Of a DNA stretch of 64,000 nt, positions 41,454-44,400 are shown in pieces; positions within the stretch are counted from its first letter, which is position 1, and each line of letters starts with the position of its first letter. This DNA comes from Flaccisagitta enflata. Its lineage: Eukaryota. The notes under the pieces are model-generated. The model was not told the DNA's origin and did not search any database. It worked only from the letters and a program-made list of their open reading frames with translations. Location: the NCBI GenBank assembly GCA_965153355.1, contig OZ231126.1:41540001-41604000 (forward strand), written 5' to 3'. A program made the position numbers and the translations under genes.

Positions 41454-44400
41454 CTCTGCTGTTGGCTTATGGATCTGAATGGTTCTGTCGCAAGATCTGA
41501 CGAGAAGCGATTCTGAGGGCACATCTGGCCATAATCGCGTTGACATCTTGAGCAGTTGAGGAAAAACATCCACGTAAAAGTCAACGCAGGAATGCGTGCG
41601 ACTCTCAAACACAATTTCGGCCTTAGTCGCGTCCAAATCCGCCGATTCAAAGCTCAATATGATTTTGCTATCTCTCTTCAAAGGCAAAATGGAACCGTCG
41701 GCCATTCCACGGTTACACAATTCCGTTTCAAACTTGTCAAATGTATCCAAGTAATGTTTCGGTACAGATCTTTGGTCAACCAACTCCGTAAAACAGCTGA
41801 GTGAGTGCAAATAGAGAAACGGAAAAAGAGCATGGAATTTTTCCATCATTTCCATCGCGGACGGGTTTGCCTTACCAAAAGCGGCGAGCATGGCTTTTGG
41901 GTTTTCGTGTCCATGCTGGAAAATGTTGCGAATGATTCTTAGCAAATCGGCGAAAGTGACTATATCGTACCTTCGCCCTCCGTTGGAAGCGAAATCACTC
42001 AGGATATCCGCCATGACTCCCACATTCCAGGCTCCTTTTCCGCCTATGACGAGCGGAGAATTCCTCTCCAACTTCTCTCTTGCTTTCGCCTGTGCGATTC
42101 GAGCTCTCTTGCTCGTTTCACCTTTGAGATTTTTGATGAAGCAATTCAGTTCTTCAAGCAAAGACTTTTTCTTCATTTCATTTTGGAAAGGCGGGGTTAG
42201 TAAGGCTTCTCGGGGCGACAGTCCCTCTTGTAAGGCTAGTATGAGGATTCCCATCTCAATATCAGACGAATCTAGAAAATCATCAAGTTGAAGTTTTCTT
42301 CCGTTCGTTGTCCACGTCATGAAGAAATAAACGAGAGACGCGATGGAATTGTGCCGCCCTTCTCCTGGCATCTTCTTCTCATTACAGGGGACTGAAGAAG
42401 CAAGTTCCGGGTCAATTTTGGGAATCCAATTTCCCATTCTGTCGATGGTGAGAATGACAGAAGTGTGATTCAATCGTGTCCATTGAGCAGAACGTTTATT
42501 CAAGGCAATAGCTTTCAGAAAGTATTCTATAGCACTCACATCATTCATTGGAATCTCGAATAGATCGTAGGCAAGGTGTAAGACAAAGGGAAGGATATCT
42601 ACGTTCAGAGTTTCTTGAAGCATGGTGAATTCACGGCGTATTAGTGATGCCGAAGTGCTCCAGACTGATTTTCCATCGACTCTGAACATTTCCTTTGAGA
42701 TCCTCAAAATCCTGTTTTTATCCAGTTTTGCCAAATATGGTAATTTTTTCTTTATTTCTTGGAATGGTGGAATCTTAAGTGCCACAGTAGCCGAAAATCC
42801 TTTGAGCAAGGAAAGAATGAGAATGGCGTAATCAGCTGTTGGCAGTTGCTCCAAATCTTTGTGATTTATGATGTCTCTCTCCTTACCCATGAGTAAGCAA
42901 AAGATCACATTTGCAGCTGAATTCAGTTCATCGATCATATCTCTCTTGGCCTTCTCAGTTGTATCTGCGTAATAGCGCGCATTGTGGAAATCACAAATTT
43001 TGAGATTCCATTGGGAATGTGCTGAATTCATTTTCAAGAAAGCAGAATTCGAATCGATTTTCCCATGAATGATTTTCTTCTCCGAGTGCAAATAACTGAT
43101 AGCGGAGAGTAGATCTTTGATCAACTCTTTTGGGTTGAATTCAGCCCCCAACGCCCGTGATCCTTGAGTAAAATACTCTTTCAAGTTACACTCGGCCTTT
43201 TCCATGAAAATGATTCCTCTCGTTTCCGTCATTCCTTGTATCACCATTGCACGTTTCAGGCGTCTGATTCGCTCATGAGAAATTGCTTTGCGAATTGCGC
43301 ATTCCTTGTCAAACTCAGACCTTCTTTCTTTCAGATGAATTCGACTGTATATTTTTTGGTCAAAATTCCTTTCAAGTCTCATTTTGCGATGCCGGTTGTG
43401 CGCTGCATGTAAGACGAACATCACTACGAGAATGGCAAAAATTGGGGTAACAATTTCGAGCAAATGACAACTGAGGTAAACTCTCACAAAGTTGAAAGTC
43501 TGATTCCCAGCGCACTCGGTGACAGAGTTTGTGATGTAAGAAATGTGGTTCAACGTGTGCATTTGATCGCATTCATCACAAAGGATAGGGTTGCCTGCTA
43601 TTTGTACCTTTGTCGTTATCTGGAAGTCAGGTATAAATTTAAGGAGATTCATTCTTAGGTCAATCTCAGTCAATTTTTGTAGATATTCTGCCCCGCCGAT
43701 GAATGAGATGTTATTATCCTCCAGCCGCATTGAAGTTATATTTTCGTGGAACTTTGTAAAAGTATTATTGTGGAGATTATTTCCTGCATAATTGATCGCT
43801 ACTTGGTGGAAAGGTAGACATTCAGGGAACGAATCGAAGTGTCTATTGGGACAATCAATGGAAATATAATACTTTCGATCGGTTTGACAGTTGCAGCCTT
43901 CTGGGCAGCAAGGCACCACATCATGTAGTAGCAAAAAATCTATCAGGTACCTCATGTCTTCCTCGCAGCTACATTGCCAAGGGTTGTCTCTCAATTTTTT
44001 TTCATTGATTTCATTTAGGATGATCCACTTATTTTTTGGAATCATTCTTATATCATTGTGCTCAACATCAAGCTCTGTCAATGGCACAACATATTGTGGA
44101 ACATATGGTGGCGCAACATATGTCATATTGCAATTTTGAAGATTTTCAAGATCACAAAGCACATGAGCCCCAATATCTGATTCATCCTTGGAATAGAGCA
44201 ATGTCGGAATGCTGCTTAATTTGTTATGATTAATAATCAGTTCCTCAACCCCGATCTCGTCTTTGTTTTGAATGCCGCGATTGTATCTATCATTTGATTC
44301 AATATATATAATTTCGAATCTTGTTATTGCATTATGACTTAGATCAAGTCTTCTCAAGCTATTGTAAAACTTGATATAGCACCTCTGATTTCCTTCTAGC

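Follow-up and report, generated by a model that had tools for sequence, protein, structure and literature searches.

The domain called kinase-extension nuclease (KEN), a member of the HEPN superfamily, is the RNase module of Ire1 and of RNase L. In yeast Ire1, the general acid/base pair consists of H1061 with Y1043, the scissile phosphate is held by R1056 and N1057, and the substitution Y1043F causes an approximately tenfold loss (Korennykh et al. 2011, PMC3149027). In that article RNase L was called the only known Ire1 homologue; later surveys have provided more KEN clades and little about their function (PMC3710099, PMC10400998). One of these surveys sorts the KEN homologues into ten clades, confines RNase L proper to jawed vertebrates and describes RNase L as a Pkinase domain plus an RNase domain (PMC10400998). 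The other one defines the HEPN motif as Rx4-6H with a polar residue after the Arg, lists KEN domains fused to kinases and to ankyrin, CCCH, ubiquitin-like and BRCT domains, and mentions lineages, Oikopleura dioica and the monocots, in which KEN has expanded with no recognisable kinase (PMC3710099). Here we analyze a 64,000-nucleotide stretch of contig OZ231126.1 of Flaccisagitta enflata (assembly GCA_965153355.1, positions 41,540,001 to 41,604,000 of the forward strand; hereafter, the window), which contains a long open reading frame (ORF) for a predicted receptor-like protein, P0001, with a KEN domain in its cytoplasmic part.

The ORF extends over positions 41382..46142 of the minus strand (1586 codons, 4761 bases) and its translation gives the 1586 amino acids (aa) of P0001. 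The initial annotation of this DNA had proposed that P0001 keeps the four KEN active-site residues with the spacing of IRE1, and that nuclease function was retained even though the kinases of the protein had decayed. The residues and their coordinates turned out to be exact: Y1392, R1405, N1406 and H1410 are encoded at 41913..41969 of the minus strand (Y1392 at 41969-41967 and H1410 at 41915-41913), within the string RRYDIVTFADLLRIIRNIFQH of residues 1390-1410. The spacing, Y-13-R-N-4-H, is identical in the aligned human IRE1 string and in the yeast Ire1 tetrad (Y1043/R1056/N1057/H1061, PMC3149027), the family profile puts the four residues in register, and R1405, N1406 and H1410 agree with the HEPN definition given above (PMC3710099), as the annotation had it for RNxxxH. 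When the window is translated in all six frames, the bare pattern Y-x12-RN-x3-H is found only once, at the site of the tetrad, and 50 mononucleotide shuffles contained it 0.16 times on average, with a maximum of 2. Since the pattern reaches up to two copies in shuffled DNA, the argument has to rest on context: the pattern is too common to count alone, and it is the domain context that lifts the tetrad above chance. Taking together the sequence, the IRE1 alignments, the conservation in the family and the layout in the structural model, we think it probable, with some reserve, that this putative catalytic tetrad is the catalytic centre of a genuine KEN endoribonuclease domain, through which a receptor-like membrane protein of type I would act in the cytoplasm.

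The KEN domain itself comprises aa 1320-1462 (41757..42185, minus strand). The Pfam family Ribonuc_2-5A (PF06479) matches aa 1342-1459 with an E value of 3.3e-9 and a score of 37.4 bits (the cut-off being 23.3), over positions 11-121 of the 127 in the profile, and it was also above the cut-off in six of the seven other proteins scanned, five family relatives and the nematode outgroup P0066, with P0029 below it at 17.2 bits. A profile built from 18 family members (A2) recovered yeast Ire1 over the whole KEN (E 8.2e-4; profile 7-148, chain 291-424), with Y, R, N and H in register and Y1392 aligned with yeast Y1043; with the same profile, human IRE1 gave an E value of 0.014 and RNase L one of 0.41. 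By every sequence test, P0001 qualifies as a KEN-domain protein. For the module as a whole, the structural prediction points in the same direction. An AlphaFold model of aa 900-1586, made with a 37-row alignment, has a predicted local distance difference test (pLDDT) of 87.1 and a predicted template modelling score (pTM) of 0.78; the pLDDT is 91-97 in the KEN domain and 91-95 in the blocks holding the four residues. The Tyr is placed in a loop ahead of a long helix (model 498-514) that bears the Arg, the Asn and the His, which is the layout seen in Ire1 (PMC3149027). In Foldseek, the top matches of the model were IRE1 kinase-RNase structures (best 6w3c_B, E 4.3e-9), and VIA-align aligned 325 residues with IRE1 4z7h_B (Z 17.2; model 15-561 against chain 562-956) and 310 with RNase L 6m11_b (Z 16.3). 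The KEN domain is directly preceded by a kinase C-lobe remnant, and a full kinase fold is found further upstream, at aa 916-1129.

Conservation across relatives supports the retention of the site. An exhaustive HMMER search with aa 900-1586 recovered 70 representatives at E <= 1e-3, 38 at E <= 1e-10 and 12 at E <= 1e-30. The motif was counted over all 70, with no selection by motif; a local alignment with a score of at least 40 covering positions 1405 and 1410 was obtained for 30, from which P0031 was dropped as a spurious alignment of a fragment matching the tail only, leaving 29. Of these 29, which truly cover the site, 28 keep the R-N-H residues, among them two named IRE1-type outgroups, P0066 and P0068. 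The family across which the tetrad is conserved comprises at least 38 representative clusters at E <= 1e-10. Furthermore, KEN was the best conserved domain in all ten pairwise comparisons that covered it. In P0002, P0004 and P0005 its identity is 55-60%, against 22-50% for the other domains, and that of the catalytic helix is 80-92%; P0004, for example, is identical to P0001 in 56% of the KEN, 42% of the pseudokinase, 37% of the insert, 50% of the remnant and 36% of the tail. Two proteins from other assemblies, P0003 and P0090, are 97% and 74% identical to P0001 and have an intact KEN; that of P0003 is 99% identical, compared with 86% for the adjoining kinase remnant. All this agrees with the annotation in that the nuclease site appears to be retained.

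Regarding the origin of these relatives, the 23 in-family proteins whose source was seen are all ENA or Logan records (18 of the 20 looked-up representatives and five of seven further matches). The named proteins among the looked-up relatives are outgroups only, namely P0066 of Pristionchus and the fish (Esox) IRE1 proteins P0068 and P0089, with P0068 at E 3.9e-4. The DNA of the relatives was not found in two scans of JGI metagenome contigs, and the DNA of the window is present in sequencing runs of one organism and is partly matched in marine metagenomes at 90-95% identity. The ESM Atlas returned only weak leads (0.82) to three clusters from plants; in two of them PF06479 is listed for 15-48% of the members.

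Several observations weigh against this interpretation. Of the four residues, the Tyr varies most: among the 29 representatives, 19 have Y at this position, five have H and one has Q, and four do not cover it. Such variation is compatible with activity, given that the loss caused by Y1043F in yeast Ire1 is only around tenfold. In P0064 the site, which lies there among the first residues of a truncated prediction, has the letters S-S-H. The RNA-binding R1039 of Ire1, four positions before the Tyr, is without a conserved counterpart in the family, and for that reason substrate recognition, as judged from sequence, may differ from that of Ire1. The search of solved structures with the single sequence of P0001 was not significant (human IRE1, E 0.086); its alignment still places Y, R, N and H on the human counterparts. 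As regards the model, its IRE1 alignments have a root-mean-square deviation (rmsd) of about 18.7 A, with kinase and KEN as two differently placed bodies, and the KEN plus the ubiquitin-like region folded alone gave a poor model (pLDDT 65) whose best match, IRE1, fell short of significance (E 0.15, with an rmsd of 5.9 A for 110 columns). Finally, the in-frame base differences that were printed (29 of about 372) include 22 non-synonymous and 7 synonymous changes; this is not a proper ratio of non-synonymous to synonymous substitution rates (dN/dS) and gives no support for purifying selection. The differences bunch in the LRR part, in the kinase part and close to the ends of contigs, and 41913-41969 is free of them; because the 29 are a part of about 372 and are clustered at contig ends, the set was judged unusable as dN/dS. 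In addition, a homodimer prediction for aa 1217-1563 had a score of 0.01 (mark 0.32) and counts neither for nor against dimerisation.

The claim that the kinases have decayed is supported too, with a qualification for the second of them. The first of them, at aa 916-1129 (42756..43397, minus strand), is a pseudokinase by its motifs. Pfam Pkinase matches it with 33.4 bits (cut-off 31.7), and VIA-align superposes it on CDK2 (4bco_C) with Z 16.6 and an rmsd of 2.6 A over 199 residues (model 17-230). Where human IRE1 has IVHRDLKPHN and SDFG, P0001 has IIHGKIDSNS and CDFH, that is, HGK in place of HRD and DFH in place of DFG. No glycine-rich loop is present, because P0001 is devoid of any glycine between the TM (transmembrane) helix and residue 970 (aa 913-969). 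In the relatives, the HRD position was read by eye as HGN, HGK, HCK, HGG or HLN; the only relative read that keeps HRD and DFG is P0029, a soluble protein of 534 aa with a full Pkinase match (E 2.5e-31). The second of the presumed kinases is merely a C-lobe remnant, at aa 1217-1319 (42186..42494, minus strand), detected by internal BLASTP to the end of the first pseudokinase (E 3e-6, 20 of 45 residues identical); it closes with a second ILILxLQEGLxxxEALxxPPFQ motif that repeats the end of the first kinase.

Between both kinase-derived segments there is a conserved helical insert, at aa 1130-1216 (42495..42755, minus strand), which is helical in the model and for which Pfam gave no match. Comparison of trimmed alignments with hhalign relates it to the N-terminal half of KEN (P 0.011, 37 columns) in the expected register, and the insert reads Y, D and I where KEN has R, N and H. 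These data are suggestive of a degenerate, truncated and dead copy of KEN, a second copy that would precede the intact one. Another duplicated KEN was seen in P0066, a hypothetical protein of 611 aa from Pristionchus mayeri, with two KEN matches around an intact kinase, one of them with RD...H and the other with RN...H.

The insert bears on the strongest alternative, according to which the KEN of P0001 keeps its motif and is no enzyme alone, being either an RNA-binding or scaffolding module or active only in hetero-oligomers with paralogues, with the insert and the ubiquitin-like tails doing the signalling. All seven aligned copies of the insert contain the motif AYDLCDVP, and a copy with no catalytic function is thus shown to be kept; as described above, the Tyr differs among family members; and HEPN members that lack the motif are probably RNA binders (PMC3710099). 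On the other hand, a non-catalytic role would not require R/N/H, which 28 of the 29 relatives retain at identities as low as about 30%, and nowhere is the protein more conserved than in its catalytic helix. We regard this alternative as unlikely.

The comparison with IRE1 shows both likenesses and differences. P0001 shares with it the type-I topology, with the sensor outside the cytosol, one TM helix, a kinase fold and a C-terminal KEN, as well as the register of the tetrad; IRE1 structures are the best structural matches of the model, and, of the two enzymes, IRE1 is the nearer to the family profile (E 8.2e-4, against 0.41 for RNase L). P0001 could therefore be thought of as a diverged IRE1 orthologue, a sensor of the unfolded-protein response in the endoplasmic reticulum (ER). 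However, it has an animal-type extracellular LRR (leucine-rich repeat) ectodomain in the place of the IRE1 lumenal domain, with LRR_8 as the only Pfam family found there, and it is devoid of HRD, DFG and the Gly-rich loop, so the catalytic motifs of the kinase are lost. It also carries the degenerate KEN-like insert, the C-lobe remnant and ubiquitin-like C-terminal domains, it has no R1039 counterpart, and its similarity to IRE1 at the level of the single sequence is marginal. Furthermore, there are many paralogous clusters with other N-termini, such as the LRR-Roc protein P0082, and the proteins named IRE1 (Esox P0089 and P0068) are only distant outgroups. With a different sensor and a dead kinase, the orthologue was rejected, and we give this explanation very little probability.

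P0001 resembles RNase L in having a dead kinase fold (pseudokinase) before the KEN, a repeat-type N-terminal sensor and a probable context of defence, and 6m11_b is among its structural matches. In contrast to RNase L, P0001 is anchored in the membrane with an extracellular sensor, which cannot sense cytosolic 2',5'-oligoadenylate (2-5A) in the same way, and the profile similarity is weak. The ankyrin family was not among the Pfam matches of P0001 at E <= 1. An assignment to RNase L was rejected on account of the membrane anchor and of the lack of ankyrin repeats. P0001 resembles Toll, the Toll-like receptors (TLR) and other animal LRR-TM receptors in its signal peptide, in the Cys-rich caps around its extracellular LRR blocks and in having just one TM helix, and TLR3, TLR9, TLR13 and Toll are among the significant matches of the ectodomain; its cytoplasmic output differs from theirs, being pseudokinase, KEN and ubiquitin-like domains and not TIR, a domain for which Pfam gave no match in P0001. 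The combination of KEN with ubiquitin-like domains has a precedent in the HEPN survey (PMC3710099), whose available portion gives no LRR-TM-KEN architecture for KEN and mentions LRR only for the DZIP3 HEPN family. A full-text search of the literature retrieved no paper on a LRR-TM-KEN protein, an architecture that Figure 2 or the supporting information of PMC10400998 and the additional files of PMC3710099 may show.

If P0001 works as Ire1 and RNase L do, its kinase-fold module would be a scaffold only. Most likely, a ligand bound to the LRR ectodomain would cluster the receptor, bringing the KEN domains together into an active RNase. The His/Tyr pair would then cut RNA, with Arg and Asn holding the scissile phosphate and without any metal, leaving 2',3'-cyclic phosphate ends near the membrane. 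The N-terminal sensors of the family are varied (LRR-TM in P0001, LRR-Roc in P0082 and, in P0029, a plain kinase that looks active), the tails are ubiquitin-like, and because of this a role in innate defence or stress signalling, and not in the unfolded-protein response, is suggested. It is possible, and we propose it only tentatively, that these proteins constitute an undescribed family of pattern-recognition receptors of marine eukaryotes (probably animals), in which an extracellular Toll-like LRR sensor would be connected through a dead kinase scaffold to an IRE1/RNase L-type RNase with ubiquitin-like tails. In such a 'TLR-RNase L hybrid' of innate immunity, ligand-induced clustering at the membrane would trigger the cleavage of RNA, and in the subfamily of the window the dead KEN copy would partner or regulate the active one from within the same chain.

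A surface-type sensor wired to an RNase is an unusual design. If the proposal is true, a family leading from an LRR sensor to KEN would show that the switch made of a kinase scaffold plus KEN has been reused with quite different sensors, and would provide a candidate, open to direct testing, for receptors that signal through an RNase outside vertebrates. Likewise, the paired dead and live KEN copies would be a natural experiment on the regulation of the KEN dimer.

The predicted domain order of the protein is signal peptide, poly-Asn tract, animal-type LRR ectodomain, one TM helix, pseudokinase, KEN-like insert, C-lobe remnant, KEN and ubiquitin-like domain(s). The probable signal peptide, MKMKMKMSAKLMSIFLFWSISVIFWSA, read by eye from the translation, corresponds to aa 1-27 (46062..46142, minus strand). 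It is followed by a low-complexity poly-Asn tract of about 130 codons at approximately aa 94-226 (45465..45863, minus strand), recognized in the translation. The tract is missing from the full-length relative P0008 and may be a coding microsatellite expansion; long AAC/AAT-type tracts like this one are also found elsewhere in the window, e.g. at 55126-55500. The extracellular LRR domain, aa ~330-892 (43467..45155, minus strand), consists of two LRR blocks with Cys-rich caps (Pfam LRR_8, E 1.2e-32, five stretches), and its best solved relatives are animal extracellular LRR proteins: the IGF acid-labile subunit (E 7.5e-37), LRIG1, LRRC15, LRRC32 and Toll-like receptors. The single TM helix at aa 893-913 (43404..43466, minus strand) is the sole strong Kyte-Doolittle peak of the protein (2.41 at aa 894). 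The order LRR-TM-pseudokinase-KEN is common to P0004, P0007, P0008 and P0020, with the TM between the LRR and the kinase in all four. In P0082 (1599 aa), LRR, a weak Roc match (26.3 bits, cut-off 27) and two hydrophobic segments are found before the pseudokinase-KEN-ubiquitin-like part; on the evidence of its sequence, the same putative RNase module is joined there to a quite different sensor.

After the KEN, P0001 has a first C-terminal domain of beta-beta-alpha-beta-beta type at aa 1463-1563 (41454..41756, minus strand; model strands 592-599, 607-614, 649-651 and 654-656 and helix 623-638). It had no Pfam match, and it is called ubiquitin-like by the topology of the model only, no search having named the fold. 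The ORF continues for 23 codons beyond this domain, and these codons together with the stop codon are probably part of an intron, so that the true product would have about 1731 aa and two ubiquitin-like domains, and not 1586 aa. The tail of the ORF was judged to be intronic because a GT donor is found right after codon E1563, the pLDDT of the model drops below 50 for aa 1563-1586, at 41401 and 41408 the read alignment shows other alleles and relatives with indels (of 1 and 2 bases), and exons can be matched downstream; in addition, P0003 diverges from P0001 in the region of these 23 codons.

The proposed gene model, all on the minus strand, has three exons. Exon 1 (ORF codons 1-1563) extends over 41454..46142, as taken from the ORF list and its translation. 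Probable intron 1 (41233..41453; GT at 41453-41452, AG at 41234-41233) includes the final 23 codons and the stop codon of the ORF. Probable exon 2 (41055..41232), with its frame and splice signals read from the sequence, would encode a linker and the strand ...VFVSEGSTIQVIKPELIIEF..., and was located by tblastn with aa 240-285 of P0018 (41190-41077, E 6.5e-4). Probable intron 2 (40491..41054; GT at 41054-41053, AG at 40492-40491) is followed by probable exon 3 (40162..40490), located with aa 288-344 of P0019 (40464-40279, E 6.8e-4), which would encode the second ubiquitin-like C-terminal domain and the stop codon. Both exons 2 and 3 have AG/GT borders and compatible phases. The terminal domain of P0018, homologous to exon 3, matches Pfam ubiquitin with E 3.3e-4 and 20.8 bits, below the cut-off of 25.4.

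It is hardly credible that the motif is a relic in a gene that is decaying or has lost its function, in a pseudogene or in an artefact of annotation. The long poly-Asn tract and the mostly non-synonymous printed variants would fit such a view, and no read aligned among about 6% of the reads of X9, the one RNA run of the same study, a result that speaks neither for nor against expression. However, the frame is open over 4761 bases in DNA with about 40% G+C, canonical splice signals lead to homologous downstream exons, and P0003 and P0090 keep an intact KEN in other assemblies, with the KEN of P0003 closer to that of P0001 than its neighbouring remnant is.

In relation to the DNA of the gene, two further observations were made. 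Within probable intron 2, the segment at about 40600-40756 reaches word depths near 1e6 in run X1 and of tens of thousands in marine metagenomes, and is a very high-copy repeat of the genome or of its relatives. At 41526-41730, run X1 carries two versions, one identical to the window and the other with 14 differences in 205 bases, which corresponds to very divergent alleles or to a close paralogue.

As for the rest of the window, Rfam gave no match in it. Long dinucleotide or short-period microsatellites, (GA/TC)n and (CA/TG)n, occupy 17448-18775, 21270-21750, 32575-33314, 50260-52000 and 62000-62670, and yield spurious ORFs that are open in several frames and on both strands. Finally, the region 9500-14300 has a G+C content of 0.48-0.53, compared with approximately 0.40, and contains several ORFs of 100-170 codons on both strands; it may represent another gene or a mobile element.

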